Assembly: GCA_038063415.1 (NCBI GenBank) | Contig: JBBTVD010000011.1 | Coordinates: 779 to 64,778, forward strand | Reading direction: 5' to 3' | Source of the DNA: Patescibacteria group bacterium | Lineage (GTDB): Bacteria; Patescibacteriota; Microgenomatia; Levybacterales; UBA12049 | Length of the DNA stretch: 64,000 bases | Shown here: one piece after another, positions 10,490 to 58,805 of the stretch | How the letters are laid out: each line of letters starts with the position of its first letter | Position numbering within the stretch: position 1 is the first letter of the stretch | Notes under the pieces: generated by a model | What the model was told of the DNA's origin: nothing | Database searches by the model: none | Seen by the model: the letters and a program-made list of their open reading frames with translations, nothing else | Translations under genes and position numbers: made by a program

Positions 10490-10540
10490 AAAGACATTCC
10501 TATACTACACCATATACAACTTCTTGTGAAGAGCTACATT

Positions 10541-10640
10541 TTTTACGGGTGGCACGACTGGGTCTCCCGTTCGAGCGCCCACAGGAAGCTTCGCTTCTGA
10601 GGACGTCGGAATGGGGTGAGGAGTGACGGATCCCGTAAAG
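10541..10640. repeat. GC-rich palindrome-rich repeat element, family B, copy 1 (intergenic)
   Basis: The ~80-bp core 10556-10635 closely matches 23912-23990. Both contain cgagcgccc, caggaag + short palindrome (gaagcttc here, ggaagatcttcc in copy 2), gaggacgtcgg and ggggtgaggag. It is flanked by the inverted repeat tttacggg/cccgtaaa. GC content is much higher than the surrounding DNA. Confidence 0.7.
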
Positions 10641-10702
10641 ACCAGGTAATAAAAACAAACAGGATCAGTTACCTGATCCTGTTTGTAAGATAAATACAAA
10701 GG

Positions 10703-11134
10703 TTATTTATACTGCCCCTTGATCTCAAAAAGCAAATAAAACCCAATAATAATACCTAAAACTCCTCCAACTGAGAGAGAGAGTACAGCCGAAACAGCAC
10801 TAATTGCTTCCGACCAAAATAAGAGCGTCCAACCTGCATAGGCATGCTTGGTAAGCTTTGGATATGCCATAAGCATCAGAATACTTGAAACGATTGCTAG
10901 TACTCCTGAAGCCATCACCATAAAGCTAGCCTCTACTCCTCCAAGTATTGCTACTGGAGAAATACCAATTGCGCCAAGTCCTACAATAATACCAAGAATA
11001 CCAAAAACGAGTGCAAGAATTGGTGCGATCTTGACCAGTACTTCCTGAATATTTTTAGGAAGATGAGGAGCTTGTTTGAAGACTCCTTCCAGCATACCAA
11101 TCAGATCATTTGCTTGTGATTTTTTTTCTGCCAT
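10703..11134 (-). CDS. Hypothetical small integral membrane protein (about 4 transmembrane helices)
   Basis: 143 aa dominated by Gly/Ala/Ile/Leu hydrophobic helices. Confidence 0.5.
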   Translation of the reverse strand: MAEKKSQANDLIGMLEGVFKQAPHLPKNIQEVLVKIAPILALVFGILGIIVGLGAIGISPVAILGGVEASFMVMASGVLAIVSSILMLMAYPKLTKHAYAGWTLLFWSEAISAVSAVLSLSVGGVLGIIIGFYLLFEIKGQYK

Positions 11135-11232
11135 GTGTATTCACCCCCTTTCATACGCAACAACTATCTCAATGATAACAGAAAATACTTCGGAGAACAG
11201 AGAGCATTACGAAGTTATTTGGTTCTTACCTT

Positions 11233-11291
11233 GTCATTCCTGCGTAGGCAGGAATCCAGAGATCTAGATTCCCACTTTCGTGGGAATGACA
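11233..11291. repeat. Hairpin-pair repeat element, family A, copy 1 (intergenic)
   Basis: gtcattcctgcgtaggcaggaatcca + 8-bp spacer + gattcccactttcgtgggaatgaca. Two inverted hairpin units form terminal inverted repeats. The spurious ORFs 11135..11329 and 11076..11267 read through it. Confidence 0.8.
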
Positions 11292-11311
11292 GAATGGACG
11301 AAAAAGGCTTA

Positions 11312-12646
11312 TCACCAATTCAAACTTAATTGTGGAGAAAGCTTTTTTTTCAACTGCTTTTCTTCTTCTTCGTTCCAAATAGAGACTTTACCATACTCCC
11401 CATCGTACCCAGGAACAATAGCAATATTTCCTTCCCTCACTTTCTTTACTCCTGCTGATACCTGAGGTCCCGCAATATGTGCGATGTCTGCAATAGGTGC
11501 CTTCAGAAGGATATAAAACTCTGACTGCAACTCATGACAAAGCCGTATAAACATATTCTTTACCTTTTGACTAGCCACAGTCGAATGCATGGCCTCAGCA
11601 ATGATCTCGTTAAGAGGGATAAGCTTTACATAAGGAGGCTGCTTCTGCTGTGTATCGGTATGCCATTTGAGTCCTTGTGGATTAATCTTCTGTGTAACTC
11701 TGGTAAGAAGTGAGGGATCAGCAAGTTCTTGTACTCGATACAAAACTCCTTCAGTCATTCTCCGTTTACAGACAGGACAGATATTTCCATTCGCTCTGAT
11801 CTCTTCTGGTCCTTGTGCAACTTTACAGTTGCGGTGTCCTGAGAAATGGTACTTCCCTTCCTCAGGATAAAACTCAACCGTATAGGCAATGGTATTTGGC
11901 GTATCGACAGAGAAATGCATAATTGCCTTACGTACGTCGTCATACGAAAGCTTCTCAAGATCCATAATCGTTGCTTCCCTTCCCATCTTGGGAGCGCTAT
12001 GCGCATCAGAAAAAGAAAGAATCGTCCGAGTCATCAATTCCTTTACCTGCCAGTTCATGTCAGGATCGCTTGAAAGTCCCGTCTCAATGCCGTAAATATG
12101 CGGTGTTAACTCTTCAAAAGCTTGACGGAGCGATTCATAGCCAGATGCACTCCCGTAGATACCAAAGTGTGGCGTCCAGACGTGACAAGGGATCAGAAGG
12201 CATCGTTCGTCAATCGAAAGAATAAGCTCAAGCAGTTGTTTTGACCATAGACCAATAATTGGCCTTCCGTCAGCAGACAAATTGCAACCATGTTTAAGAA
12301 GAGCTGCGGTAATCTTTTCTGCAACCTGCATGCTCGGAGCAAAGACTAAATTATGGATTCTTCTCAGTTTGTCGTTTTGTTTGTAGATGTTTGAAATTTC
12401 TGTTGAAAAGAGAAAGCGAATCTTTTGATGTGGAGATACTTCTTTCTTTAATCGATACAAGCCCTCATCTGCTTCATCAAGTTGTCCCTGGATCTCTTTG
12501 AACCACAGCGGATGGGTAAAATCACAAACGGTCAGTATGTCCAATCCTTTTTGGGTGGCAACTTCGGCCATTACGGGAAGTGTCATTTGTGGAGAAACAG
12601 CACGGGAGTATTTGGAATGGAGATGCAAATCAGTCACATACTGCAT
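11312..12646 (-). CDS. PHP-domain nuclease, EndoQ-like (N-terminal PHP domain plus C-terminal Cys4 zinc finger)
   Basis: DLHLHSKYSRAVS PHP metal-binding N-terminus and a C-terminal CPVCKRRMTEGVLYRV-type zinc ribbon, 444 aa. The architecture matches endonuclease Q. Family assignment is from memory of EndoQ and was not searched. Confidence 0.6.
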   Translation of the reverse strand: MQYVTDLHLHSKYSRAVSPQMTLPVMAEVATQKGLDILTVCDFTHPLWFKEIQGQLDEADEGLYRLKKEVSPHQKIRFLFSTEISNIYKQNDKLRRIHNLVFAPSMQVAEKITAALLKHGCNLSADGRPIIGLWSKQLLELILSIDERCLLIPCHVWTPHFGIYGSASGYESLRQAFEELTPHIYGIETGLSSDPDMNWQVKELMTRTILSFSDAHSAPKMGREATIMDLEKLSYDDVRKAIMHFSVDTPNTIAYTVEFYPEEGKYHFSGHRNCKVAQGPEEIRANGNICPVCKRRMTEGVLYRVQELADPSLLTRVTQKINPQGLKWHTDTQQKQPPYVKLIPLNEIIAEAMHSTVASQKVKNMFIRLCHELQSEFYILLKAPIADIAHIAGPQVSAGVKKVREGNIAIVPGYDGEYGKVSIWNEEEEKQLKKKLSPQLSLNW

Positions 12647-12787
12647 GGGATTTATTGTAACATAGACAAAGAAAAAACAGTAAACCTTGTCGCAGCTATT
12701 ACGTCATGCTGGCTTGTCCAGCATCAGTATCTCAATCAAGATTCTGGATGCGCTCCGCTTGTCGCTTACCAGAATGACGGATCTATG

Positions 12788-14647
12788 CTACTCACTTTTC
12801 CCTTGTAATTTATACATTGCAATCAATTCTTTTACACTAGTCGCATCCTCTGCTTTTTTATCTTTGTCCCGAAAGGTAATCAGACGTGGGAACCTGAGTG
12901 CATAACCAGCTTCTTTCACCACTTTGGCTTCCTCCCCTTCTTGGACTTCTTCCTCATTCATCCCTGCCGTATGCATGGGGCTTCTGGTAATCTCATCAGC
13001 CAATACCTCAATAACGATTTTAGGCTTCACCCAGACGCTTGGGGTAATAAGTGACTCCACACGAGCAGGCTTATGCTCAAGTTCTAGCCCTTTTGTCTTT
13101 TCAGCAATACTTCGCCATTCATCATCGCTCAGTCCCGTCCCAATCCGTGAAACCGTCACAAAAGCATCTTTTTCCTCATCATACAGACCAACGAGCAGTG
13201 CCCCCGCCCCAAATGAAGCTCGTTTCCCTTTGCCATAAATGTATCCTAAGATCACGCAATCTATGGTATCGGTCAGATCACCAGCCGAATGTCTTTTGAG
13301 TTTTACCCAGTTAAAATTACGCCCTCCAGCCTCATACAATGAATCAGGCCGTTTGATAACAACTCCTTCAAGGCCTTTGGAAATCGAATCATCAAGGAGG
13401 AGCTGCAGCTCTTCGGGTTCTTTTAAGACCTTTCCAGGAGAAGGAATGAGCGTCTCACTGCCATCAATAATCCGCTCTAGCGCTTCCATTCGCTCCATAA
13501 GTGGCGTATCAATAAGTGACTTCCCATCCGCATACAGGATGTCAAAGACAAATGCCCGCAGAGGTAATTCCTTGGCTACTGCATCAATGTTATGTTTGCG
13601 ACGGCGTTTGGTTGTCTCTTGAAATGGAAGAAACTCTTCAGAGGCCGGATTGTACGCGAGTGCTTCAGAATCAAGAATTGCCGTTTTGGCTTTCACTTGC
13701 CTCCGCGTCCCCGCAATAAGCTCAGGGAACATATGCGTCATATCTTCAAGATTACGAGAGAACATGGAAACCTTCTCCCCATCTTTATGGATCTGTACCC
13801 GAAAGCCATCGTATTTCGGTGTCGCCTGTACCCCTCTAAGCACCTTTTCTCCGTTATCTGTCATCCTCGACTTGATCGGGGATCCATCCTTCTGGATTCC
13901 CGCTTTCGCGGGAATGACAATTGTTGACATCTTCTCAAAAACCTTAACAGGATTGGGCAGACGTTCACAAAGTTCAGACCGAATGGGGCGACCCACGGTA
14001 ACCGTTAGCTTTTGTACCGCCTCAAGTCCTTGATCCATTAATGTCTTGCCAATCAGTCCCAAATCTGAAGTCTCATTGTATGCTTTCTCAAGTAACTTTC
14101 GTTTACTTCGATCCCCCAGAATTGCAAGACTCACTGCATCAAGAATGGTGGGATCGCCAATTCCAAGACGTGCTTTACCAAGCACAATTCGCACAAGATG
14201 CTTTACAGAAGAGCTATCAAGTTTTTTTAGTAGTTCTGAGAAGAGTGTTCGCTTCTTCTCGACAGTCCCCTCGCCAGAAATATGCGCAAGATCCGTTAAC
14301 AGAGCAAAAACTTCTCCGACGGTAAGCTTGCCTCTTCCTTCTTCACCCTTTCCCCGTAACTGTTTCGCAACCTTCCCCATATCTCCCATTTGTTGATACA
14401 CCTCCCACACTGCTTCTTTGGTTGAATCAAATGCTTGCGCAAGAGCTGCCGAGACAGTTTTGTCTGCCATACCAAATTCAACCGGAGCATAAAAAGGAGC
14501 TACTCTCCCCTGAGAGAGGTACATAACCTTGTCAATTTCGTCAGAAGATACTTGCTTAAAAAGCTCTGACAAAATATCGATTAATGCTAATCGAGACGAG
14601 GTCTCTTCAAGTTTGTCAAAATAAGCTGCGAGTTCTGAAAAAGTCAT
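12788..14647 (-). CDS. ATP-dependent DNA ligase
   Basis: Adenylation motif I KYDGFRVQIH (KxDG), a downstream OB-fold region, 619 aa. Carries an in-frame family-A repeat insertion (VIPAKAGIQKDGSPIKSRMTDNG). Confidence 0.9.
   Translation of the reverse strand: MTFSELAAYFDKLEETSSRLALIDILSELFKQVSSDEIDKVMYLSQGRVAPFYAPVEFGMADKTVSAALAQAFDSTKEAVWEVYQQMGDMGKVAKQLRGKGEEGRGKLTVGEVFALLTDLAHISGEGTVEKKRTLFSELLKKLDSSSVKHLVRIVLGKARLGIGDPTILDAVSLAILGDRSKRKLLEKAYNETSDLGLIGKTLMDQGLEAVQKLTVTVGRPIRSELCERLPNPVKVFEKMSTIVIPAKAGIQKDGSPIKSRMTDNGEKVLRGVQATPKYDGFRVQIHKDGEKVSMFSRNLEDMTHMFPELIAGTRRQVKAKTAILDSEALAYNPASEEFLPFQETTKRRRKHNIDAVAKELPLRAFVFDILYADGKSLIDTPLMERMEALERIIDGSETLIPSPGKVLKEPEELQLLLDDSISKGLEGVVIKRPDSLYEAGGRNFNWVKLKRHSAGDLTDTIDCVILGYIYGKGKRASFGAGALLVGLYDEEKDAFVTVSRIGTGLSDDEWRSIAEKTKGLELEHKPARVESLITPSVWVKPKIVIEVLADEITRSPMHTAGMNEEEVQEGEEAKVVKEAGYALRFPRLITFRDKDKKAEDATSVKELIAMYKLQGKSE
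13860..13919. repeat. Family A repeat, copy 2, inside the ligase CDS in frame
   Basis: Degenerate unit 1 (gtcatcctcgacttgatcggggatcca) plus unit 2 gattcccgctttcgcgggaatgaca at 13895-13919. Translated as VIPAKAGIQ in the ligase. Confidence 0.75.
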
Positions 14648-15768: not shown

Positions 15769-16041
15769 ATGCCAACCCAAAAAGCAATCGCACAAGAGAA
15801 ACTACACTTAGAAATTCTCAAGCAAATGATTACGCTTGCTACCAGTGGCTTTGGACTAGTAGCCGCGCTTGCCTGGAATAACGTCATTCAGGAATTTATG
15901 AAGGTCTATGTGAACAGATGGCTTCCACAAGGTGGGAGTGTTGTATCGCTTCTCTTCTATGCCGTTCTCGTAACTGTCTTTGCGGTGGTTGTTACCTATC
16001 AATTAACCAAACTTGCTGAACTTTCAGAGCGGAAGAAGTAA
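15769..16041 (+). CDS. Small membrane protein (90 aa, 2 transmembrane helices)
   Basis: Internal Met of ORF 15679..16041. Two clear hydrophobic helices. The ORF's upstream part is implausible. Confidence 0.45.
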   Translation: MPTQKAIAQEKLHLEILKQMITLATSGFGLVAALAWNNVIQEFMKVYVNRWLPQGGSVVSLLFYAVLVTVFAVVVTYQLTKLAELSERKK

Positions 16042-16968
16042 TGTACGCATCACTTGAGGAATCTCTTCTGTCAGATCTGAAGCATTAAAATAATACCCAA
16101 CCCGCTCAAACAAAGCTTCTCCTGCCTTCTTATTGAAGTAACTTCCAGCAGTTGCAGCCAGATACAACTCATTTTTACAGGCAAGAGCAGCGACAAGTCC
16201 AGCCAAAACATCCCCTGTCCCTCCTTTGGTCATACCGGCATTCCCTCCAGAGATCTCAACCCACTGTTCTGGAGAACATACGATATCCTTCTCCCCTTTG
16301 AGGAGAATGGTACAGTTATACTTTTTAGCTACCTGCTTTATAGTGTCATGCTGAACTTGTTTCAGCATCTTTTTATCCTTTGTTTGAAGATTCCGAAACG
16401 AGTTCGGAATGACAGGAGAAAACACTCTCCCAAACTCTTGATGATGGGGCGTCAGAATCACATTCCCGTTGAGTGGAAGCAACCATTCTGGCTCAAGCAT
16501 CTGCAGGGCTCCAGCATCAATGATCCATTTTTTCTTAGGATAGGTTGCAAGCAGATACTTCGTCAGATAGTACGTCTGCATACCTTCGTCCTCTACGAGA
16601 AGAATCTCCTCCAATTTACCATTTACCATTTGCCATTTGCCATTTGCATGTTCTGTCCGAACCATCCCTGGACCAATAAGCACGGCGTCAGCTTCCTCAA
16701 TATACGCATCAATATCTTCCTGTCTGACGATAATGCCATTTCGAAACTCTTTTTTGAGCGACTCAACCAGCAGGTTGTTCTCCGCAACCGAAGAATAAAA
16801 GACCATATCAACAATCTTTGAAGCAATTTGCAATGCCCACAGAGAAGCTGCATGAAAAAGTTGGGAACCTCCAATAATCATCAGTTTTCCATTCTGTCCT
16901 TTGTGAGAACCTGCAGGAGGAACGTAGATATCTTTGAGTAATTCAGGATCAAATTGCTGCATAGTCAT
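16024..16968 (-). CDS. nnrD: ADP-dependent NAD(P)H-hydrate dehydratase (YjeF C-terminal / carbohydrate-kinase-like)
   Basis: GKLMIIGGS near the N-terminus, LTPHHQEF (LTPHxGEF motif), and GGTGDVLAG near the C-terminus. Carries an in-frame family-A repeat insertion directly after the HHQEFGR motif. Confidence 0.8.
   Translation of the reverse strand: MTMQQFDPELLKDIYVPPAGSHKGQNGKLMIIGGSQLFHAASLWALQIASKIVDMVFYSSVAENNLLVESLKKEFRNGIIVRQEDIDAYIEEADAVLIGPGMVRTEHANGKWQMVNGKLEEILLVEDEGMQTYYLTKYLLATYPKKKWIIDAGALQMLEPEWLLPLNGNVILTPHHQEFGRVFSPVIPNSFRNLQTKDKKMLKQVQHDTIKQVAKKYNCTILLKGEKDIVCSPEQWVEISGGNAGMTKGGTGDVLAGLVAALACKNELYLAATAGSYFNKKAGEALFERVGYYFNASDLTEEIPQVMRTLLLPL
16345..16414. repeat. Family A repeat, copy 3 (variant units), in frame inside nnrD
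   Basis: Unit 1' gtcatgctgaacttgtttcagcatc (hairpin) + spacer + unit 2' gattccgaaacgagttcggaatgaca. Translated as VIPNSFRNLQTKDKKMLKQVQHDT. Confidence 0.75.
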
Positions 16969-18836: not shown

Positions 18837-19775
18837 TCAACATTGGCAAGAGCTACAGAAAAACGTTCCCCGCCCTCCGAGTACACATCTTTGAATTATT
18901 GTGCCACAAAGAGGGCATGCTTGTCCATCTTTTTTATACACAAGAAAATGTTTCTGATAATTGCCCTGCGTACCAAGCACACTGATATAGTTATTTGCCG
19001 ATGCTCCCCCCAGCGCAATACTTTTGGTGAGCAATGCCTCGATTGCGACAAAGAGCTTCTGTTGTTCAGATGGGGATAAAGAGCTTGCCGAACGAGTTGG
19101 GAGAATCCCCGCCTGGAAGAGTGCATCATTGGCATAAATATTCCCCACACCGGCAATCCTTCGCTGATCCATAAGAACGGTCTTTATAGGCGATCTGGTA
19201 GCCTTCAGAATGGTTTTAAAATCCTTAAGTGTCAAATCTCGCAACGGCTCCTTCCCAAGAGACTTAAAAAAAGGCAAAAAGGCTACTTCTTCTGTAGGAA
19301 CAACCTGAATCCAGCCAAACTGCCGGATGTCACGATAGTACAACACCGCTCCCCGATCCAAATGAAAAATGACATGTGTGTACTTGTCTGGAAGATCTTC
19401 CAAAGAAAACTGAGAAAAGGATGTAGCATTTTTTTCGTTCGCATCCTGAACTCCTTGATTATTTTTTAAATATGATTGTGTGAATTGCGGAACAGAAAAA
19501 TGTTGCAATCCAATCTCAGATTCTTTATCTTTTGCTGGTTTGTACAATAGCTGCCCCGTCATCTTCACATGAATGGCCAAACTCATATTATTTGAAAAAT
19601 CAATCACCAACCCTTTCCCAAACTTTCTGGCACCACTGACCTTAGCTCCGGTAATTAACTTCGGATCTCCACGAAACTGTTTGGGGAGAGTAATCACAAT
19701 ATCCAAGATCGTGTGTCCTACCAGATGTTTCTTCAGACCAAGACGAATTGTTTCTACTTCAGGAAGTTCAGTCAT
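18837..19775 (-). CDS. Fpg/Nei-family DNA glycosylase (formamidopyrimidine-DNA glycosylase-like) with a ~50-aa insertion
   Basis: Starts MTELPEVE (P2 and E3 catalytic residues). Has an H2TH region and a C-terminal zinc finger CPLCG...CSSCQ. The called start at 19835 is probably spurious. Confidence 0.85.
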   Translation of the reverse strand: MTELPEVETIRLGLKKHLVGHTILDIVITLPKQFRGDPKLITGAKVSGARKFGKGLVIDFSNNMSLAIHVKMTGQLLYKPAKDKESEIGLQHFSVPQFTQSYLKNNQGVQDANEKNATSFSQFSLEDLPDKYTHVIFHLDRGAVLYYRDIRQFGWIQVVPTEEVAFLPFFKSLGKEPLRDLTLKDFKTILKATRSPIKTVLMDQRRIAGVGNIYANDALFQAGILPTRSASSLSPSEQQKLFVAIEALLTKSIALGGASANNYISVLGTQGNYQKHFLVYKKDGQACPLCGTIIQRCVLGGRGTFFCSSCQC

Positions 19776-19782
19776 GAGGAGA

Positions 19783-20193
19783 TTATAGCAGGCCTCTTTC
19801 CTTAAAATACTTTTCAGAAGGACGAGGCAAAGCAAGTGACTTTAACTCAGACAGCTTTATCCACTGCAAACTGACCAAATCGTCGGCCGCTACAGCATCT
19901 ATACCCTCCGGTTCTATACGGAAGACCAAAAAGACATAATGCGTTAGCTCTCCATGCTTATCAGGCTCATAATCCTCATCAAACGCTACTCGCTCTATCT
20001 TCTTTACCGACAAACCAGTCTCTTCTGTAACTTCCCGCTTCACCGCATCATGCACCGATTCTTCGCCGAGATTGACTCCACCACCCGACAAATGCCACGT
20101 GTTAGGATAGGGTCCAGTATTTTCCTTCTTCTTCCCAAGAAGTACCTTTCCCTCTTTTTCAATAATAGCCGTAACTACTAATCGCGATTTCAT
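19783..20193 (-). CDS. NUDIX hydrolase
   Basis: Nudix box GGGVNLGEESVHDAVKREVTEETGL, 136 aa. Confidence 0.85.
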   Translation of the reverse strand: MKSRLVVTAIIEKEGKVLLGKKKENTGPYPNTWHLSGGGVNLGEESVHDAVKREVTEETGLSVKKIERVAFDEDYEPDKHGELTHYVFLVFRIEPEGIDAVAADDLVSLQWIKLSELKSLALPRPSEKYFKERGLL

Positions 20194-21374
20194 ACTTTTT
20201 TTTGCTTTACCTTGGCAGACACAAACGCTTGTATTTGCTTCATAAAGCGTTCTTTTGAAAACTTCTCTGCTTGTTTTTTACACTCCACTTGCATTTTGTC
20301 ATGCTGAACTTGTTTGCGCATCTCAAACCTTTTAATTGCCCGAGACAACCCTTCAGCAGTAAGCTTGTCAAAAAAGATTCCCGTCTTCCCATCGATAACG
20401 GTTTCTTTTACACCGCCCCCCCCGTAGGCAATCACGGGTATCCCACAAGCCATTGCCTCAACTGGTGTAATCCCAAAATCCTCATCGGCAGCAGCAAAAA
20501 GGAATGCCTTGGCACCCTGCATTAGACGCAATTTTTCTTCTTCGTTTACTTCGCCAACAAACGCAACCGTCTTCCCCGCCAACGACTGTAACTCTTCTCC
20601 ATAGCCAGCAAAGGATTTACCAAAAACTTTCAATGGCACACCAAGATCGGTACACGCCTGGACAATCAGATCAAAATGCTTCGCACGAGCCAAGCGACCA
20701 CCAGCAAGATAGTATGCTTTTGACTTGTCATTCCGGGCTTGACCCGGAATCCATTCCATTCTAGATTCCCGCCTTCGCGGGAATGACAATAAAGAAATGT
20801 CCACTGGAGGGTAAATCACGGTCGAATCCCTTCGATAAAACTTCCTAATTCTCCCCGAAACCTCTTGTGAATTGGCAATAAACCAGTCAACCTGTTGTGC
20901 TATCCGAAAATCACTCAGTCGCAGGAAATGATTTGCTATCGTAGCAAACGCTGCTACGAGCTTATGCTTCTTCCAGCTACGTGCGGTTGCATACCCATAG
21001 AGATATCGAGGTGGTGTATGACAGTAGCAAATATGCACTTCCTTCCCCTTACGAATCGCGTTTGGAAAAAAGGCGCCGGTTGCTGAGACAATAACCACAT
21101 CATACGAAGAGAAATCAAATTGCCCAAAAACAGAAGCTGAAATGACTCGAAAAGGGCTTAGGAGTTTGTAGTTAAATGGCACATGTTGGAACCAAGTTGT
21201 CTTAATCTTCCACCCTGAGAAACGCTTTCTATGTGGGCCAAGGAACTTGGGTAAATAGACAGATGTATACACATCCGCATCTGGATAGATCTCGTGCAAA
21301 GCCTCAAGCACCCGTTCTGCACCCCCATACTCTTTGATGTAATCATGGACTAACGCAACCTTTATCTTTTTCAT
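20190..21374 (-). CDS. Glycosyltransferase family 4 (GT-B fold)
   Basis: C-terminal EDFGITPVEAMACGIPVIA (the E-x7-E region of GT4). Carries two family-A repeat insertions (SFPRRRESRMEWIPGQARNDKSKA, and a C-terminal MRKQVQHDKMQ). Confidence 0.8.
   Translation of the reverse strand: MKKIKVALVHDYIKEYGGAERVLEALHEIYPDADVYTSVYLPKFLGPHRKRFSGWKIKTTWFQHVPFNYKLLSPFRVISASVFGQFDFSSYDVVIVSATGAFFPNAIRKGKEVHICYCHTPPRYLYGYATARSWKKHKLVAAFATIANHFLRLSDFRIAQQVDWFIANSQEVSGRIRKFYRRDSTVIYPPVDISLLSFPRRRESRMEWIPGQARNDKSKAYYLAGGRLARAKHFDLIVQACTDLGVPLKVFGKSFAGYGEELQSLAGKTVAFVGEVNEEEKLRLMQGAKAFLFAAADEDFGITPVEAMACGIPVIAYGGGGVKETVIDGKTGIFFDKLTAEGLSRAIKRFEMRKQVQHDKMQVECKKQAEKFSKERFMKQIQAFVSAKVKQKKV
20296..20322. repeat. 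Family A repeat, solo degenerate unit 1', inside the glycosyltransferase CDS
   Basis: gtcatgctgaacttgtttgcgcatc. Same unit as at 16345 and 48997 with two substitutions that break the hairpin. Translated as MRKQVQHDK. Confidence 0.6.
20727..20788. repeat. Family A repeat, copy 5, in frame inside the glycosyltransferase CDS
   Basis: gtcattccgggcttgacccggaatcca + spacer + gattcccgccttcgcgggaatgaca. Translated as RRRESRMEWIPGQARND. Confidence 0.8.
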
Positions 21375-22959: not shown

Positions 22960-23334
22960 ATGGTCGATGGAGCAGAATCACGGGAAACAAATCAAACTCC
23001 TGAAGAAATAGCTACTGAACTCTTACACAAGGCTACATGGGGTTCACCTGCATTATATGCAGCTCAAGATTTTGCCGAGTTTTGTCTTGCTGATGGATAT
23101 GAGCCATCTGTCAGAGAAAAAAAAAGAGAAAAAATCAATGATCGTATAACTGAACATCGATTGGAAAAGCCAGGATATGGGTATACTTTGGCTCAATTTA
23201 ATGCACTATATCCAAACCTCGCTAGAAATAGGACTGCTGTAACTTTTGGTGCAAATTTATATGGGAAAGTACAGGAGATTACTGATAGACCTGCGCCTTC
23301 TCCAGAACCTCCTCCACTATCACAACAACCCTAG
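22960..23334 (+). CDS. Hypothetical protein (124 aa)
   Basis: ORF preceded by a TTGACA-N17-TAATAT promoter-like sequence (22925-22953) embedded in a (gacaa)x4 tandem repeat. Confidence 0.4.
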   Translation: MVDGAESRETNQTPEEIATELLHKATWGSPALYAAQDFAEFCLADGYEPSVREKKREKINDRITEHRLEKPGYGYTLAQFNALYPNLARNRTAVTFGANLYGKVQEITDRPAPSPEPPPLSQQP

Positions 23335-24360
23335 CTGCTCCTGTTCCTTGCCAAACTGCGTATCAAGCCGCTTGAGCAAACTATTGAATTCATGCTCTTT
23401 AAAGGTCTTACGAAGGGCAGCAATATCAAAATCTGCACAGGCACAATCAGCAAGATCAAACTGAATTGGTGCATCAGTGATGATCTGGGCGAGTTTTTTG
23501 GCAAGTGCAGATTGCTCAGCATCAGTTGCTAGCTTCAGCCCAATCTTTTCAGGAAGCTCCCCTATTTTTTCATACAGGTTCTCAAAGGTTTTGAACTCTT
23601 GTAGGAGCTTACTGGCAGTCTTTGGACCAATTCCTGTCACGCCAGGATAACCATCTGATGGGTCGCCAATCAGCGCCTTATAATCGACAAACTGACTCGG
23701 ATGTACCCCATATTTCTCCTCAACTGCCGCTTCATCGTACATAACCGTCTTGGTAATCCCTGTCTGTGGCATCATTACCTTTACCTGAGGGTTCACTAGC
23801 TGTAACAAATCCCGATCCCCTGTCAGAATGACGACCTCTAATTCGTTAGTATGATCGGAGGCTGTATTGCGAGGGGGGGCAGTCGTGGGATTCAATTGAG
23901 AGTGGGTGACGCGACTGGGGTCCCCTGCTCGAGCGCCCGCAGGAAGATCTTCCGAGGACGTCGGAGCGGGGTGAGGAGCGTCAGGACCCGCTGAGACAAC
24001 AGCCTTCGTCGCAATTGTCCCAATCAAATCATCCCCCTCATACCCATCCAACTCAAAAATCTCTACCTTCATCGTCCGCAGCAACTCCCGGATCAGATGC
24101 ATCTGGGAAATTAGATCATCAGGAGGAGGTTGCCTATTCTCGTGATACCCAGCAAAAAGAGTCTGTCTAAAGGTTGGTGCAGCACGATCAAAACAGACAG
24201 CCAGATACTCAGGCTTCTGATCCTCGAGCACAAGAAAAAGCATGGTAAAGAAGCCATAAATAGCGTTTACAAATTCTCCTTTGGGATTGGTGAGTGTCGG
24301 ATAGGCATGATAGGCGCGGTATAAGATAGCGTTACCATCGATAAGAAGAAGCTTCTGCAT
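23320..24360 (-). CDS. 5'-3' exonuclease (Pol I N-terminal / FEN-like domain, stand-alone)
   Basis: MQKLLLIDGNAILYRAYHA N-terminus, the GYEGDDLIGT and LTGDRDLLQL metal-binding motifs, and an H3TH region. Contains a ~50-aa low-complexity in-frame insertion between the conserved blocks, encoded by repeat family B. Confidence 0.85.
   Translation of the reverse strand: MQKLLLIDGNAILYRAYHAYPTLTNPKGEFVNAIYGFFTMLFLVLEDQKPEYLAVCFDRAAPTFRQTLFAGYHENRQPPPDDLISQMHLIRELLRTMKVEIFELDGYEGDDLIGTIATKAVVSAGPDAPHPAPTSSEDLPAGARAGDPSRVTHSQLNPTTAPPRNTASDHTNELEVVILTGDRDLLQLVNPQVKVMMPQTGITKTVMYDEAAVEEKYGVHPSQFVDYKALIGDPSDGYPGVTGIGPKTASKLLQEFKTFENLYEKIGELPEKIGLKLATDAEQSALAKKLAQIITDAPIQFDLADCACADFDIAALRKTFKEHEFNSLLKRLDTQFGKEQEQLGLL
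23838..23995. repeat. Family B repeat, copy 2, in frame inside the 5'-3' exonuclease CDS
   Basis: The core 23912-23990 matches 10556-10635. It encodes AGPDAPHPAPTSSEDLPAGARAGDPSRVTHSQLNPTTAPP between the GTIATKAV and VVILTGDRD blocks. Confidence 0.7.
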
Positions 24361-31538: not shown

Positions 31539-32255
31539 ATGATCGAAGAAACGGTCGAAAAGCCACAGCTGCCCAGTAGCACACTCAGTCAAATACAAAA
31601 ATTACTGCTCCTTATCAAGCAAAATAAAACTTTAGCGCTTTTTCTGGGGTTTGCAATCCTCTTTGCGGCAGGCACAACTGCTTATTACTTCATCGCCCCG
31701 AGCCAACACAATCAATCGCAACTTTTTGCTCCTGTTAGACAAGAAGCAACTCTCCCACCACCATCGCCTACCGCTACAGACGCACCAACACCGACGCTCC
31801 CTCTCGTCACAATGCTTCCTAGCCCAACAGCAACCCCAAGTCCAACACCCACCTATAACCCACTTGCCTGGATTACCTATCCCAACGTACTGTATGGCTA
31901 TAGCGTACAATATCCACCAAATTGGTATGTCATTAGTCTTGGAGAACTCGAACCTATGGTACCCAACTATGTTGTCTTTAACCCCAACACCGCCTCAACG
32001 AGTGCGCAATCAATCACTATCTCAGTCAGCAAACGAACGTTTGAACAGCAGCTTGCCATCGGTGGAAATGGACAAAACACTTCGATTACCGTCGGAGGCA
32101 TCCCGGGAACGCTCCAAACATTACAAGACTCCGACGGCAATCAATCGTTGCTCGCAATTGTGCCCTTGACCAACACACTCCTGCTTTTCTATAGTGATAC
32201 GATGTTTACTACGATCTTTTATCAGATGCTCTCTTCGGTGAAGATTACTAACTAA
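31539..32255 (+). CDS. Hypothetical membrane-anchored or secreted protein with a Pro/Thr-rich linker
   Basis: N-terminal transmembrane helix, a PPPSPTATDAPTPTLP...TPSPTPT linker, and a C-terminal globular region. Confidence 0.5.
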   Translation: MIEETVEKPQLPSSTLSQIQKLLLLIKQNKTLALFLGFAILFAAGTTAYYFIAPSQHNQSQLFAPVRQEATLPPPSPTATDAPTPTLPLVTMLPSPTATPSPTPTYNPLAWITYPNVLYGYSVQYPPNWYVISLGELEPMVPNYVVFNPNTASTSAQSITISVSKRTFEQQLAIGGNGQNTSITVGGIPGTLQTLQDSDGNQSLLAIVPLTNTLLLFYSDTMFTTIFYQMLSSVKITN

Positions 32256-32509
32256 TGAATACCTGGTTTGTCTATATTTTGCTCTGTCGTGATACAAGTC
32301 TGTATACAGGAGCTTCTCCTGATCCAGAGGAAAGGTTTCTCACGCATCAAAAAGGTAAAGGGAGCAAATATACCAGGTCGCATCCTCCTTTAAAGCTCGT
32401 CTATCAAGAAGCCTGTGGGACTCATTCTAACGCTCTCAAACGTGAATTGGAGATTAAAAGCTGGAGTCGAGAGAAAAAGATTACACAGCTTGGCCTTATC
32501 TTAACGTAA
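32255..32509 (+). CDS. GIY-YIG nuclease family protein (UPF0213-like)
   Basis: WFVYIL...SLYTG...KYT...ELEIKSWSREKK pattern in 84 aa. ATG overlaps the preceding stop (taATGa). Confidence 0.8.
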   Translation: MNTWFVYILLCRDTSLYTGASPDPEERFLTHQKGKGSKYTRSHPPLKLVYQEACGTHSNALKRELEIKSWSREKKITQLGLILT

Positions 32510-35523: not shown

Positions 35524-35622
35524 GGTGAGATATAATCATAGTCTGTTTTCTACCAATTTGCAAAAACCCGTTTTTTTGCTTGACTATAAGCATTTTTATT
35601 GATATTATGGGACTTACTATTT

Positions 35623-36483
35623 ATGAAACCGATCAAAATAGACGACGCACATAAAGAATTCTTGGATTTTTTGAAAGCAAAGAAGCACTCAACGGCTACC
35701 GTTCTTGCCTATGGTAAAGATATTGATCAGCTCGCTTCTTTCCTTCAGGAACTTGAAAAGCATCATATTCATGATGTCTCAAAAGATGATATCCAGTCTT
35801 TCCTTGGAAAATTAGCTGAAAAAGGCTACACACCTAAGTCACTTTCTCGTAAACTTAACTCTACCCGTACTTTTTACCGTTTCTTAAAAGTGAATGAGTA
35901 TGTTACTGATGATCCTTCCCTCTTAGTATCACATCCACAGTATGAACTGGCTGCACCAAGAATCCTTAAGCCAACCGAATATAGAGCGCTTCGTGACGCT
36001 GCGCGCAATGATGCACGAATGTACGCTATTATCGAAATCCTTCTTCAGACTGGTATTCGTATTGGTGAACTCGCTGATCTGCGTGTTGGAGATATTAGAA
36101 CAGATGACCTCCTTATCAGACCTCATGAAAAACATGCCGAGAGACTTGTCCCTATTAATAAATCTGCTAAAGAAGCTCTTCATCGATATATGCAGACTCG
36201 TCCACAAATTGAAGATGATCACGTATTCGTAACGAAATCTGGCAAACCTTTCCTCGTCAGAAATATAAGAACAGCGATTGAGCGATATTTCCGAATCGCC
36301 GGAATTGAAAATGCAAAAGTGAACGACCTCCGCCATACGTTTGTCGCCCATCATTTGAAGCATGGGGTTTCACTCGTGCTACTCTCAAAGATTCTTGGAC
36401 ATCGAAGACTCTCAACAACCGAAAGATACCTTGAATACGTCCAAGACCGAGCAAAAGATACCACAACCCTCAGCGAGCTCTAA
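35623..36483 (+). CDS. Tyrosine site-specific recombinase (XerC/XerD-like or integrase)
   Basis: N-terminal SAM-like core-binding domain and a C-terminal catalytic R...HxxR...Y motif (LRHTFVAHHL ... GHRRLSTTERYLEY). Confidence 0.85.
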   Translation: MKPIKIDDAHKEFLDFLKAKKHSTATVLAYGKDIDQLASFLQELEKHHIHDVSKDDIQSFLGKLAEKGYTPKSLSRKLNSTRTFYRFLKVNEYVTDDPSLLVSHPQYELAAPRILKPTEYRALRDAARNDARMYAIIEILLQTGIRIGELADLRVGDIRTDDLLIRPHEKHAERLVPINKSAKEALHRYMQTRPQIEDDHVFVTKSGKPFLVRNIRTAIERYFRIAGIENAKVNDLRHTFVAHHLKHGVSLVLLSKILGHRRLSTTERYLEYVQDRAKDTTTLSEL

Positions 36484-36934: not shown

Positions 36935-37006
36935 TGCGTCCGGCTGGAATCGAACCAACGACATGGTGTGTATAAGACACCTGTTCTACCGCTGAACTAC
37001 GGACGC
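36935..37006 (-). tRNA. tRNA with anticodon loop CUUAUAC, i.e. anticodon UAU (Ile, decodes AUA)
   Basis: Manual fold: acceptor GCGTCCG/CGGACGC (perfect), D-arm GTTC-AGCGGTA-GAAC, anticodon arm GGTGT-CTTATAC-ACACC (perfect), T-arm GTTGG-TTCGATT-CCAGC. 72 nt, followed by CC. Confidence 0.7.
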
Positions 37007-37050: not shown

Positions 37051-39426
37051 CTATAACTTCGCTCGCTGAGCAATTTCCTTCTCAACAACATCCACACTTC
37101 GAGCATATTTCAGACGGGAAAGCTCGACAACGAGCTGTGCAACTCGTTCATTCCGCATGGCCTTCTCCTTGGCAATGTCTTTAGTTGTATCCAGTGAAAA
37201 TGGCAAAGTCGGCTCTCCCCCAACGAGGGTACGCATGTAGCAATTATACTTGTCGACGTTAATCAAGTCCTGTTCGCTAAACGTTGGTTGGAATTCGTGT
37301 TGTAAGAAGTTGGCATCGGTCACACCAACACGGAATGAGGCAATCGTTCCGACGTTACCGAAGATAGCGTTTTTGATCTCTTCTTCCATCTGTCCAATAA
37401 ACTGATTAGCAACTACGAGGTTAAGACGGTATTTTCGAGCCTCAGACAGAATTTGGGCGAAATCAGGAGTTGCGAAGTTTTGGAACTCGTCCACATAAAG
37501 AAAGAAATCTTTTCGCTGATCCATAGGGATATCCTGACGAGACATCGCAGCCACCAAGATTTTGGGCACAAGCACCAGTCCTAAGAAGTTCGAATTTTCT
37601 TCACCAATTTTTCCTTTTGCGAGATTGATCAGCAGGATCTTTTTTTCATCCATTACTTTTCGGAAGTTAAACGCACTATCTGATTGACCGATAATATTTC
37701 GGATCATTTTGTTGGTAACGAATCGGCCAAATTTTGACGTGATGTAATCAAGCACTTCAGATTTGTGGAAATCAGAGGTTTGAGCAATCTGATCAGTCCA
37801 GTAACGTCTGACGATAGGATCTTTCACTTTTGGCAGCAGTTCTTCCACATACTTTTGATCAGTGAGCACCCGCACCACCTCGATAAGAGTACTTCCCTTC
37901 TCTGACATAACCGTCAACATAGCATTACGAACCGCGTGTTCAAAACGAGGACCGACCATACCTGTTTTGTTCGGATCAAACAACTTATACATAAGGCCAA
38001 TGATCGAATTGGCCACAAAGTGAATTTGTTGCTCATTGTCTGCTTCAAGTAGATTAAAACCCATCGGCCGCTCAAGATCAGAAGGATCAAAAAGTATGAC
38101 GTCTTCTGCTCGCTTAGGTGGAATTAATCGCAACGTATCTTCTACTAAATCTCCGTGCGGATCAATAACAGCGAGCCCGTGTCCATCCATAATATCCTGC
38201 ATAATCATAGATTTAAGAAACTCGGATTTTCCAGTACCGGTCTTTCCGATGATATAGGTATGTCGCCGGCGATCATCAATATCAATATGTACGGGACGAG
38301 TCATGCCACGGAAACTACTCTTCCCCAAAAATAGTCCAGTAGTCGGGACGTTTGAGGGAACTGGTGCTCGCTTTGAGGTCAACCAATGAATTCCCGGGGT
38401 GGACACGCCTTTGTTGGGTAAATGAAAAACAGTAGCAAGCTCTTCACTCGTAAGAATTGACTGTTGTCCAAAGATTGGCATATAGCGATAGATAAAGTCC
38501 TGCATAAACCAACCTTTGAAATAAATATGGTTTTTCTTGAATTTGTTTACCGACGAAGCAAACTGGCCAAAAGCGTTGGTAAGATTTCGTAGATGTGAAT
38601 CTGCCTGATCCTGTGAGATGGAACAAACAACCATTCTTACCGTTGTATTAAATCCTGGTTTACTTATTTTATTTTCTATCCCTTCCAGCTCTTTGGCATC
38701 AGTCTGGTAACTCGCTTTTTCAGGATTTGCTTCATTCTTTTTTACCCCTCCGATATAATTACGACCTGTTTTCTTCCAACTATTGTCTGCTGGACTAATC
38801 ACAATTTGGATAACAGCCCCTTCACCCTCTCCCATTTTGGCAAGAGTAGAAGTGATTGAAGAAAGTGGATCAACAGGAAGATCTTTGTATACTTTCATTG
38901 GCAGGTAGTTGCCATGCTTGACGCGTAGCGAACTAAAAGCTACCTTCCCATTCTCGGTAAAAATATTATAGTCTGAGCCAAGCGTTGCTCCTTCCATTTG
39001 TTTTGCAGCGGGAGAAGTAACCGGCACGATATCAGCATCAGGATAGGCTCCATTGATTTGTTTTTCGATAAAATCACGATATTTACTACTCACATGCACA
39101 TAGAAACGAATATCTCCAGTACGCCCAACAATTTCAAAAGAGAAATGTGGATGCCGGCGAAAGAATTCTAACCGGCCACTTTTATGGAGTGCATAGAGAC
39201 TGGAGAACATTTGCTCAGCAGCATCAATTTTGATCTCGTTATCCTTGGGCAGACTAATTTGTAAAAGCGTTGAATCGAGAGCTTCAGCCTCACGACCCCG
39301 GTGATGTAACCACAGGACAAAAAGATAAAACCCTATCCCCCCGACAGCTAACAGCACGAGGACAACAACCGTTGTGATGACAAGTGCCGTCATAATGGCC
39401 GCAGGATTAGTAAGTGAAAATTCCAT
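37051..39426 (-). CDS. VirD4/TraG/TraD-like coupling-protein ATPase (FtsK/HerA superfamily), membrane-anchored
   Basis: N-terminal transmembrane segment, Walker A GKTGTGKS followed by VIDPHGD, Walker B-like LYVDEFQNF, 791 aa. Family placement is from motifs only. Confidence 0.6.
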   Translation of the reverse strand: MEFSLTNPAAIMTALVITTVVVLVLLAVGGIGFYLFVLWLHHRGREAEALDSTLLQISLPKDNEIKIDAAEQMFSSLYALHKSGRLEFFRRHPHFSFEIVGRTGDIRFYVHVSSKYRDFIEKQINGAYPDADIVPVTSPAAKQMEGATLGSDYNIFTENGKVAFSSLRVKHGNYLPMKVYKDLPVDPLSSITSTLAKMGEGEGAVIQIVISPADNSWKKTGRNYIGGVKKNEANPEKASYQTDAKELEGIENKISKPGFNTTVRMVVCSISQDQADSHLRNLTNAFGQFASSVNKFKKNHIYFKGWFMQDFIYRYMPIFGQQSILTSEELATVFHLPNKGVSTPGIHWLTSKRAPVPSNVPTTGLFLGKSSFRGMTRPVHIDIDDRRRHTYIIGKTGTGKSEFLKSMIMQDIMDGHGLAVIDPHGDLVEDTLRLIPPKRAEDVILFDPSDLERPMGFNLLEADNEQQIHFVANSIIGLMYKLFDPNKTGMVGPRFEHAVRNAMLTVMSEKGSTLIEVVRVLTDQKYVEELLPKVKDPIVRRYWTDQIAQTSDFHKSEVLDYITSKFGRFVTNKMIRNIIGQSDSAFNFRKVMDEKKILLINLAKGKIGEENSNFLGLVLVPKILVAAMSRQDIPMDQRKDFFLYVDEFQNFATPDFAQILSEARKYRLNLVVANQFIGQMEEEIKNAIFGNVGTIASFRVGVTDANFLQHEFQPTFSEQDLINVDKYNCYMRTLVGGEPTLPFSLDTTKDIAKEKAMRNERVAQLVVELSRLKYARSVDVVEKEIAQRAKL

Positions 39427-41751: not shown

Positions 41752-41830
41752 TCCTCATGTTGCATCAACTTCCGAGGAGTCCACAAAAAAAGGACTTCTG
41801 CTCGGAAGACTTTTTGCCCAAAATAAATAG
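41752..41830 (-). terminator. Tandem hairpin plus T-run terminators after pduO (end of the nrdR-nrdJ-pduO operon)
   Basis: On the minus strand: GTCTTCCGAGCAGAAGTCC + TTTTTTT (the lower-confidence call: at most a 4-bp CTTC/GAAG stem with a 6-nt loop), then ACTCCTC-N17-GAGGAGT (perfect 7-bp stem) + TTTTTTT immediately before the next gene. Confidence 0.45.
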
Positions 41831-41892
41831 GCATGGGGATCTGGCTTTACAGTTGCGGCACAGCTCAGGAATGTCACCTGATTCACCCATTT

Positions 41893-42444
41893 TTATCTTT
41901 TTTTCCACGTTATCTCTGGTTGTTTTTCTTGCTGATTCACCAATCGTGCCATCGTAAAGAGGAGATCAGACAAACGATTCACATATTTTATAATTGCAGG
42001 ATCGATCTCTTCTTCTTGCATTAGTGATACAAGCTGCCTTTCAGCACGTCGTGTTATGCTCCGAGAGATGTGTAATGACGCACCGCTGAGACTTCCACCT
42101 GGGAGAATAAACTGCTTCAATTCTGGCAATGTGTCGGTCATCACATCAATGAGCTTCTCAAAAGCAGCTGGCCGAGTTTCAAGCCCAACGACGGGCAAAG
42201 GATATGGCGTAGCGAGAGCCGAACCAATAGCAAACAGATCATGCTGGATCTGTTCTAGTTCTCTTCTCACATCGTTTGCCATCTCCCATGTGCTATCTCC
42301 CATGTGTGCCAAAACCATTCCAAGAGAACTGTTGAGTTCGTCTATCGTCCCATAGGTTTCGACACGTTTGTCTGATTTGAGAACGCGCTTTCCATCAAAC
42401 AGAGATGTCTTCCCCTTGTCTCCCGTACGAGTATAAATAGCCAT
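41893..42444 (-). CDS. pduO: PduO-type ATP:cob(I)alamin adenosyltransferase
   Basis: MAIYTRTGDKGKTSL N-terminal signature. 183 aa. Confidence 0.9.
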   Translation of the reverse strand: MAIYTRTGDKGKTSLFDGKRVLKSDKRVETYGTIDELNSSLGMVLAHMGDSTWEMANDVRRELEQIQHDLFAIGSALATPYPLPVVGLETRPAAFEKLIDVMTDTLPELKQFILPGGSLSGASLHISRSITRRAERQLVSLMQEEEIDPAIIKYVNRLSDLLFTMARLVNQQEKQPEITWKKR

Positions 42445-42475
42445 TTAGACTACCACACCTTTCTCTCTTTTATTT

Positions 42476-42552
42476 GTCATTCCCGCGTAGGCGGGAATCC
42501 AGTAATGAGAAGCGTTCACAGATAGATTCCTGGTTTGCGACCAGGAATGACT
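42476..42552. repeat. Family A repeat, copy 6 (intergenic, within the nrdJ-pduO operon)
   Basis: gtcattcccgcgtaggcgggaatcca + 23-bp spacer + gattcctggtttgcgaccaggaatgact. The spurious ORF 42445..42675 ends in its translation (WIPAYAGMT). Confidence 0.8.
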
Positions 42553-42808
42553 ACTCGTGGGAACGCGAACAGTTGCACCAGCAATCAATGGAAGTAAGGC
42601 AGCGATGACTAAAGAAAGAAATAATACGATGGCGATGGCAATATTTTCTCTGATGAGTTTTTTGATGTTAGGCATAAAAAAATCCTTCTCACCGAGAAGG
42701 ACTATGCCATGATAGCTTTTCCTGCTCGGGCAATATCATCATGTACAGTTTTCTGACTTTACAGTAGCGGCACTGTGGTTGATTTACACAACACTTGCCT
42801 GAACATGA

Positions 42809-48403: not shown

Positions 48404-48453
48404 ATATTGAGTATATACTCCTCTTTTTTTTACTGCAAGGGGTAAATTACTAT

Positions 48454-48463
48454 CTCCTGACGT
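48454..48463. promoter_or_regulatory. Perfect 10-bp palindrome CTGACGTCAG between divergent gap and gdh
   Basis: Seen directly in the sequence. A possible operator in a divergent promoter region, with no assignment. Confidence 0.25.
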
Positions 48464-48470
48464 CAGAAAA

Positions 48471-50848: not shown

Positions 50849-50930
50849 GAGGTACAAAAATGTTTTGGTTGCATCTGAGCACTTTCTCTTTCTAATAACG
50901 CGAACTCCAACGGAAAAACATTTTTCGTAC
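50849..50930 (+). promoter_or_regulatory. Conserved structured intergenic motif, copy 1 (pgk leader)
   Basis: About 85% identical to 58721-58805. Terminal inverted repeat gtacaaaaatgtttt / aaaacatttttcgtac plus an inner inverted repeat ggttgca / tgcaacgg. Ends 24 nt before the pgk ATG. Confidence 0.55.
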
Positions 50931-58720: not shown

Positions 58721-58805
58721 AAGGTGCAAAAATGTTTTGGTTGCACCTGAGCTCCTTTTGTCTTTATAACAATGCGAACTGCAACGGAAAAATATTTTTC
58801 GTCCC
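58721..58805 (+). promoter_or_regulatory. Conserved structured intergenic motif, copy 2 (between rpiB and rpe)
   Basis: aaggtgcaaaaatgttttggttgcacctgagc...gcgaactgcaacggaaaaatatttttcgtcc aligns with 50849-50930 across its whole length. Confidence 0.55.

Follow-up and report, generated by a model that had tools for sequence, protein, structure and literature searches.

REP-type hairpin dimers carried in frame within housekeeping genes of a Candidatus Levybacteria genome segment

The repetitive extragenic palindromic (REP) sequences of bacteria were split by Di Nocera, De Gregorio & Rocco (2013; BMC Genomics 14:522; PMC3733652) into two superfamilies, one tagged with GTAG and the other with CGTC. 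In CGTC REPs the tag is often TGTC (CCTC being another variant), the stem is 8/9 bp long and almost always starts with a complementary A/T, the loop has 4-5 nt, CCA is the tail consensus, and the units occur mostly as head-to-head (HH) dimers, i.e., with the tags outside, which are often heterodimers. These repeats are known from 5 phyla, mainly from Alphaproteobacteria, and the superfamily was assigned the dRS3 repeat of Neisseria and the Rickettsia conorii palindromic element RPE-6 (both CGTC-1) as well as RPE-4 (CGTC-4). Intragenic copies were described in several species, over half of them dimers or groups that encode 20-30 amino acids (aa), often in genes for replication or repair, a DNA ligase included (PMC3733652). 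More recently, a longer Neisseria repeat has been redefined as the NTS, CGTCATTCCCGCGMAVGCGGGAATCYRG, the single-strand target of the 94-aa GIY-YIG nuclease SsnA, and ssn homologs across phyla were found to be flanked by related "SRM" hairpins (Nat Commun 2025;16:2388; PMC11893778). Here we describe hairpin dimers of this kind in 64 kb of DNA, the window, from a metagenome-assembled genome (MAG) of an uncultured groundwater Candidatus Levybacteria organism, a member of the Patescibacteria or candidate phyla radiation (CPR). Judged from sequence, these elements are non-autonomous repeats of the REP type that belong to the CGTC/TGTC-tagged superfamily, and four dimers plus a half copy lie inside intact open reading frames (ORFs) for an ATP-dependent DNA ligase, an NAD(P)H-hydrate dehydratase (Nnr), a GT4 glycosyltransferase (two copies) and a glutamate dehydrogenase (GDH). 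The reading that we prefer, at a probability of roughly 0.75, is that a non-autonomous REP-type dimer inserts without target duplication and that copies landing in genes persist where the site is a permissive loop, there to be translated.

A search of the window for GTCAT followed by a stem with at least 7 of 8-9 pairs recovered 13 modules, which form seven dimers, and in addition one degenerate half copy. The dimers measure 60-78 nt and are built from modules of 26-30 nt paired head-to-head, in the order [T/C]GTC tag, stem of 8-9 bp opening with AT, loop of 3-5 nt, CCA, CTA or CTT tail, short spacer and mirror image, and their tags face outward in all seven cases. The tag is TGTC in 11 of the 13 modules, CGTC in one and AGTC in one, and every module has an 8-9-bp stem with an AT...AT start. 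Loops have 4 nt (GAAA, GTAG, GAAG) or 5 nt (CTTGA, CTCGT, CTTGT, CGCAA), some of them being scored as 3 nt where a ninth stem pair was permitted, and tails read CCA in 6/13 modules, the others ending in CTA, CTT or CAG. When the GTCAT-plus-hairpin search was applied to the window together with 50 related loci it returned 30 modules, as compared to 3 in the same sequences reversed; the folding z-score of every dimer fell between -3.9 and -6.6 against dinucleotide shuffles, and from these two controls the hairpin pattern goes beyond what chance would produce. A profile of the modules searched with nhmmer gave no copies beyond the structural census, Rfam at its gathering thresholds had no family that overlaps any element, and a general scan for perfect hairpins revealed no other abundant hairpin family. 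The ~11 kb of contig that extend beyond the window (~75 kb in total) hold no further modules, and the density within the window implies roughly 100 copies per Mb.

Like CGTC REPs, the window's elements combine the tag, the AT-start stem of 8-9 bp and the 4-5-nt loop with HH dimers, in-frame intragenic copies and no dedicated, repeat-flanked transposase, and they are dispersed in multiple copies, the seven dimers and one half copy in ~75 kb being joined by further copies in related Levybacteria loci. They differ in their CPR host, in the restriction of the CCA tail to about half of the modules and in the occasional 3-nt loop. A high intragenic fraction is shared with R. conorii, whereas most CGTC families are mainly intergenic. 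The first-pass annotation had compared the repeats with Rickettsia palindromic elements, and this likeness proves closer than analogy, with RPE-4 and RPE-6 placed in the same superfamily; the relatedness to these two elements rests on the CGTC assignment made by Di Nocera and colleagues (PMC3733652). With RPE-1, which is ~100-150 bp long and encodes a conserved peptide in one frame (miniature inverted-repeat transposable element, or MITE, review PMC10969869), the window's elements share the habit of lying as palindromic repeats in frame within unrelated conserved genes, at sites that seem to suit the fold of the protein, and the hosts are alike in their dependence on other cells and in their reduced genomes. 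Their size does not fit RPE-1, however, and at 60-78 nt they are read in three phases and encode no conserved peptide. The REPINs of REPIN-RAYT systems (Bertels & Rainey 2011; PMC3116915) are likewise two inverted REP hairpins separated by a short spacer, form dispersed families and lack target-site duplications, but they carry a GTAG tag where we see [C/T]GTC, are essentially extragenic, and are associated with a single-copy, REP-flanked RAYT gene of a kind that was found neither in the window nor in the contig extensions. Classical MITEs such as the Correia elements and QMITE are also short and non-autonomous, with inverted-repeat ends and occasional in-frame fusion to host ORFs; unlike them, the elements described here have no target-site duplication and no parent insertion sequence, and their ends are themselves hairpins.

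The resemblance to the NTS is especially close for three modules, namely the right module of the ligase dimer (minus strand, TGTCATTCCCGCGAAAGCGGGAATCCAG), one module of the GT4 dimer and the left module of an intergenic dimer at 42475-42552, which are respectively 1, 1 and 2 mismatches away from the 28-mer. These three are the only matches to the SRM pattern, with 0.1 expected from shuffled sequences, and the other 10 modules fail the pattern in its strict form, most modules of the window having different stems such as ATGCTGAA, ATTCCGAA and ATCCCGAA. Shared with the NTS/SRM system are the oriented hairpin with an upstream GTC tag and the occurrence of the wider module family on both sides of small GIY-YIG genes, as discussed below for three metagenome loci; the differences are that the GIY-YIG gene in the window is of another, UPF0213-like kind and has no flanking modules, and that in-frame intragenic copies go unmentioned in the part of PMC11893778 available to us. 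In the literature searched there was no report of such in-frame repeats in CPR bacteria, nor of the encoded peptides VIPAKAGIQ, SFPRRRESR and KQVQHD. Since the element family has been published, as has its habit of residing in frame within genes, no new mechanism is at issue; what is new is the CPR host lineage, the high intragenic fraction and the repeated use of the same loops across Levybacteria.

The ligase ORF (12788-14647, minus strand) encodes 619 aa with matches to PF04675 (residues 3-172), PF01068 (275-451) and PF04679 (481-594). Its dimer, 61 nt at 13859-13919, is an HH heterodimer with outward tags and reads TGTCATCCTCGACTTGATCGGGGATCCA-TCCTTC-TGGATTCCCGCTTTCGCGGGAATGACA, that is, two inverted GTCAT-hairpin modules that each begin with TGTC on their own strand. 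It encodes residues 244-263, VIPAKAGIQKDGSPIKSRMT, in the linker, 14 residues before the KYDG lysine of the active site, and in an alignment with the structure of a Sulfolobus ligase (PDB 2hiv) residues 242-276 stand opposite only 6 residues. For comparison we used orthologs from 50 loci found in a scan of species-representative genomes, mostly MAGs of Candidatus Levybacteria and other Patescibacteria that are ~65-71% identical (these loci and those from metagenomes are given L numbers below). The commonest state among them is EKMG-xx-VHATPKYDG, found in at least 20 orthologs, and it is exactly there that the window has about 25 additional residues. In one relative, L010, this loop is occupied by a CGTC dimer that is read in another phase and for that reason represents an independent insertion. 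In L011, L023, L016 and L001/L003 the loop holds inserts of other types.

The Nnr ORF (16024-16968, minus strand; 314 aa, Carb_kinase PF01256) contains a 71-nt dimer at 16344-16414 that encodes residues 186-208, and it sits directly after the conserved LTPHxxEF block, as had been claimed from the sequence at first reading. Orthologs in the basal state read LTPHxxEFERVFG-xxxxEN at this point, where the window has VFSP-VIPNSFRNLQTKDKKMLKQVQHD-TIKQ. The Nnr and GT4 genes are syntenic with the ligase gene in related loci, and the window shares with L023, L014 and L005 an occupied Nnr site that agrees in both the nucleotide of insertion and the phase. Identity of the element to that of the window is 92% in L023 and 87% in L014, as compared to 68-71% for the 240-nt coding flanks; the right module is identical between the window and L023 at 28/28 positions, and the left modules differ between species by compensatory changes of stem pairs. 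The taxa with a filled site do not form one clade in a neighbor-joining (NJ) tree of the ligase, and their near relatives are empty there; this tree is star-like and poorly resolved, too much so for dating the insertions. The copies in L014 and L005 are decaying. Other types of insert occupy the Nnr loop of L006, L016, L019, L032 and L041.

The GT4 ORF (20190-21374, minus strand; 394 aa) was reported at first to have two copies, and it does have one dimer and one half copy. The dimer, 63 nt at 20726-20788, encodes residues 197-216, SFPRRRESRMEWIPGQARND, and is situated in the variable linker joining Glyco_transf_4 to Glycos_transf_1, two Rossmann-like domains. The half copy is a degenerate single module at 20297-20323 (plus strand), TGTCATGCTGAACTTGTTTGCGCATCT, whose stem is broken and which encodes MRKQVQHD, residues 352-359; where orthologs have KMKFDPKD the window has MRKQVQHDKMQVE, a net gain of 5 aa, so that a size of 15-25 residues, as first proposed for every inserted peptide, does not apply to this C-terminal copy. 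Among relatives, a third GT4 site is filled by a dimer in L025, and L016 retains a single module at the site that is filled in the window.

In the GDH ORF (48471-49853, plus strand; 460 aa from the first ATG) a 70-nt dimer at 48996-49065 encodes residues 176-198, CHAELVSASSLGYKKIPKQVRDD, between the matches to PF02812 (47-175) and PF00208 (213-459). The basal state, DEYKKIFG-ENTLGVVTGKP, is present in 30 orthologs and is extended by 24 residues in the window, and alignment to Thermotoga GDH (PDB 2tmg) places about 20 gap positions at the insert. An AlphaFold (AF2) model computed from the ortholog alignment keeps the whole fold, with a mean predicted local distance difference test score (pLDDT) of 88.7 and a predicted template modeling score (pTM) of 0.88; around the C-terminal part of the insert pLDDT is lower, at 50-60 for residues 181-200 and less than 50 for 194-203. 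The corresponding 446-aa entry at NCBI matches the window ORF with 100% identity and has the insert annotated as normal protein, which makes it plausible, as had been suggested, that annotation pipelines propagate such repeat peptides. The neighboring glyceraldehyde-3-phosphate dehydrogenase (GAPDH) ORF (47048-48673, minus strand) continues for ~125 residues past the end of its Gp_dh_C domain match, and the 5' end of its longest-start form runs into the beginning of the GDH ORF, which lies on the other strand.

Alignments to orthologs show that, measured against the basal state, all four dimer segments are insertions into genes that are otherwise intact and domain-complete. The peptides that had been quoted for them agree exactly with the translations, the host ORFs are unbroken, and the segments are neither ancestral conserved regions nor parts of frameshifted genes, so that the central claim of the first-pass annotation stands. 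Its placement of the inserts in loops is borne out as well: three of the four fall between Pfam domains, all are at positions whose length varies among orthologs, and to this are added the gaps opposite 2hiv and 2tmg and the low pLDDT in the GDH model. It might be argued that the segments are not mobile insertions at all and are either ancestral variable loops that resemble the repeats by chance, for which the length variation of the host loops in many orthologs could be cited, or artefacts of assembly or pseudogene decay. We give this explanation almost no credence. It is contradicted by the near-identity over 25-28 nt between intragenic and intergenic copies of the window, the host ORFs are of full length with domains on either side of the insert, and in-frame dimers of this kind also occur in relatives that come from unrelated studies. 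Among three independent assemblies of the groundwater population, which is from Hainich well H14 (ENA ERZ1292645/ERZ1292660), identity is 99.99-100% across the elements as elsewhere, and their agreement excludes an assembly artefact.

The four hosts read the element in different frames, as had been noted, the phase being that of VIP... for the ligase as well as for Nnr, that of SFP... for GT4 and that of CHA... for GDH. From tag to tag the intragenic dimers measure 61 (ligase), 71 (Nnr), 63 (GT4) and 70 (GDH) nt, and an expectation that the inserts come in multiples of three thus fails for all but the 63-nt copy; because 61, 71 and 70 are not such multiples, the frame must have been kept with the help of small extra changes, or else the mobile unit does not run exactly from tag to tag. 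Eighteen of 42 element frames (43%) are free of stops, which is about the random expectation for sequences of that length and indicates that the element is not adapted for translation. With this fraction of open frames and a 1 in 3 chance of keeping the frame, four intact hosts would arise by chance at ~4e-4, from which it appears that selection has acted as if the segments were translated. Tolerance of the insertions by the host proteins, which had also been asserted, is probable in view of the intact ORFs and the retention of the Nnr insert in other species.

To gauge how unusual this distribution is, the window may be set beside a metagenome comparison of at least 120 loci (GC 25-71%) that carry one module variant, the CTYGT-loop type given by the search pattern; a dimer was counted as intragenic where an open frame of at least 50 codons was present on both sides. 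Intragenic dimers make up 4/7 of those in the window and 2/45 among the metagenome matches listed (Fisher p = 0.0017), a contrast that applies to this one variant only. The two metagenome cases lie in a DNA methyltransferase-like ORF (L070, 894-950) and in a MiaB/RimO-like radical-SAM ORF (L118, 2579-2648), the latter just upstream of the CxxxCxxC motif.

Recurrence of the same loops invites the explanation that the element, or its enzyme, targets sequences that happen to lie in them. The Nnr site is, after all, filled at one nucleotide and in one phase in four taxa that are not a clade and whose close relatives are empty, and the ligase loops of the window and of L010 have received separate insertions. 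We nevertheless consider targeting of this kind very unlikely. No motif is common to the flanks of the seven dimers in the window; the star-like form of the ligase tree leaves room for vertical inheritance with repeated loss; and other Levybacteria have unrelated inserts in the same loops, among them PLRQGFEG-type and SPSTGSGSP-type segments, a different palindrome (L006) and A-rich short tandem repeats (KLKIQNSKL-type), which permissiveness of the loops explains better than targeting does. By these alignments the ligase and Nnr loops are sinks for several families of repeats.

Under our preferred reading, the elements spread, or once spread, through the genome without generating target-site duplications, and none were in fact seen, direct repeats of 0-1 nt being all that the seven dimers offer. 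By analogy with known systems the enzyme responsible would act on the hairpin in single-stranded DNA. An intragenic copy would then survive only if its net change in length keeps the frame, if it is free of stops in the frame of the host and if the site is a surface loop or a linker between domains, and survivors would be translated as an excursion of about 20 aa from the host protein, with an effect on fitness that is presumably near neutral. Such slightly deleterious insertions might become fixed more often than in most bacteria in a host-dependent lineage with a small genome, as may be the case for Rickettsia, purifying selection being presumably weaker there, and this could account for the intragenic enrichment.

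Several observations weigh against this account. The boundaries of the element are imperfectly defined, and insertion with the frame kept calls for the additional small changes mentioned above. A version in which the element is built to be translated was rejected on the fraction of open frames, which is what random sequence gives. No mobilizing enzyme was found and no transposase is present in the ~75 kb of contig: a Pfam scan of the 64 window ORFs detected neither Y1_Tnp nor any other transposase domain, the sole recombinase being XerC/D-like (35599-36483), and the annotated extensions of ~11 kb have no transposase either. There is no sign of recent mobility, with no presence/absence polymorphism across the three identical assemblies, and the best non-self GDH match in the protein database, only 64% identical, offers no close strain for comparison. 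A six-frame motif search did bring to light a single-domain GIY-YIG nuclease gene at 32255-32509 (plus strand; 84 aa; PF01541, E = 9e-18), the only candidate for a hairpin-recognizing enzyme in the window. No modules flank it, and it is conserved in relatives, where homologs on four other contigs are syntenic near DivIC, Xer and RadC in Levybacteria and Daviesbacteria, yet modules are absent from the 10-kb loci of 3/4 of these genomes. The conservation of the Nnr copy is difficult to reconcile with a purely neutral passenger; it suggests that the hairpin is constrained, that it evolves in concert with other copies or that insertion at a specific site has recurred. Finally, the appeal to a small effective population size as the cause of enrichment is an argument by analogy only.

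In a rival reading the hairpins are functional sites under selection at the nucleotide level, either as targets of an Ssn-like GIY-YIG nuclease for single-stranded DNA that limits the recombination of incoming DNA, as NTS and SsnA do in Neisseria, or as RNA or DNA structures, and would lie in genes for want of intergenic space in a very compact genome. The distance of three modules from the NTS is just 1-2 nt, the window does encode a single-domain GIY-YIG protein of 84 aa, and conservation of the Nnr copy exceeds that of the coding sequence on either side, with compensatory changes in its stems. Moreover, among the metagenome matches listed, which were selected solely for their module, small GIY-YIG ORFs are flanked by modules on both sides in L076 (3315-3706), L104 (539-973) and L132 (27-596), the last with eight modules in 1.3 kb, and a fourth, partial GIY-YIG ORF (L072) lies beside one module. 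These module-flanked loci reproduce, for the hairpin variant of the window, the published NTS-ssn-NTS arrangement, and a family-level link between the modules and Ssn-type nucleases is thereby supported. The window's own protein, however, is of a different make. It is UPF0213-like, with BH0048 and EF2693 as best PDB matches and a GKGSKYTR...LVY (GKGxKYTR) signature, where the module-flanked type reads YxVYIL...YIGVT...GFTxKY...REKQLKxWxRxWK...NPxxxDL; it is 26-31% identical to those proteins and is without their C-terminal NPxWxDL tail. Its unflanked position and its synteny in Levybacteria and Daviesbacteria loci that have no modules within 10 kb point the same way. Any function would have to be dispensable, given that most of the 50 related Levybacteria loci are free of modules, and the GT4 half copy and the Nnr copies of L014 and L005 are in decay. 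On balance we think selection on functional sites unlikely.

A narrower form of the same idea, more doubtful again, is that NTS-like hairpins in CPR bacteria are partners of a GIY-YIG nuclease for single-stranded DNA, be it the product of 32255-32509 or an unseen Ssn, that polices the integration of DNA taken up by the cell; no ssn gene of the cd10448 type was seen in the 75 kb of contig. If this were true, nucleotide-level selection acting even in essential genes would explain the over-conservation of the Nnr copy, and the in-frame peptides would be the cost of keeping a signal at the DNA level where the genome has next to no room between genes.

The three remaining dimers are intergenic. One of 60 nt at 11232-11291 lies between the ORFs 10703-11134 and 11312-12646 and generates a spurious 64-aa ORF at 11135-11329 (plus strand). 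Another, of 78 nt at 12702-12779, is just downstream of the ligase stop codon and has canonical CGTC tags, with a degenerate right module whose loop is enlarged. The third, also 78 nt, at 42475-42552, is situated between an adenosylcobalamin (AdoCbl-II) riboswitch aptamer at 42738-42809 (minus strand) and an adenosyltransferase ORF at 41893-42444 (minus strand). There are two AdoCbl-II aptamers on the minus strand here, at 42738-42809 and 41826-41902, and the dimer occupies the position expected of the expression platform ahead of the start codon of the PduO-type cobalamin adenosyltransferase. Three spurious ORFs had been attributed to intergenic copies at first pass. All three exist, but the one ending in DSRFRGNDNC (13592-13927, plus strand) is antisense to the ligase copy and not intergenic, and the other two run a few codons beyond the ends that had been given for them.

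Other repeats and inserts were observed in the window. A second, unrelated family (Family B) consists of a long, GC-rich hairpin of ~95-105 nt with copies at 10540-10645, which is intergenic and adjoins a terminator-like perfect 14-bp hairpin with a T run (10655-10686, minus strand), and at 23905-24010, which is in frame within a 5'-3' exonuclease ORF (23320-24360, minus strand). The exonuclease insert amounts to 47 aa (residues 123-169), is absent in 15 orthologs and splits the match to the Pfam N-terminal domain. An Fpg/Nei glycosylase ORF (18837-19835, minus strand) has a 24-aa insert, LQHFSVPQFTQSYLKNNQGVQDAN, at residues 110-133 (about nt 19437-19508) that is specific to the window and absent in 29 orthologs; its 3' end, AGTTCAGGATGCGA, bears a faint resemblance to a decayed module. 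An intergenic repeat of ~80 nt, 82-87% identical between its copies at 50850-50928 upstream of pgk and at 58722-58802 beside rpe/rpiB, may be a regulatory element shared by genes of sugar-phosphate metabolism. Adjacent paralogs for class A penicillin-binding proteins (transglycosylase plus transpeptidase) at 53257-55470 and 55814-58030 (plus strand) have stretches of 78-81% nucleotide identity. A VirD4/TrwB-like coupling ATPase (37051-39426, minus strand) and the XerC/D-like tyrosine recombinase (35599-36483, plus strand) are found beside a tRNA gene (36935-37006), an arrangement that recurs in related CPR loci.

Until now the in-frame insertion of palindromic repeats into housekeeping genes has been known mainly from Rickettsia; its occurrence in the CPR adds another group of host-dependent, reduced-genome bacteria, one that is unrelated to the first. 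Recurrent insertions of this kind amount to a natural map of the loops in the ligase, Nnr, GT4 and GDH proteins that tolerate added sequence. Repeat-derived segments of ~20 aa, together with antisense and other spurious ORFs, where they are deposited as ordinary protein, can seed false "motifs" and inflate the protein clusters of CPR bacteria. And the near-identity of some modules to the NTS across phyla, taken together with the module-flanked GIY-YIG cassettes, makes the association between Ssn and its repeats testable well beyond the Proteobacteria.

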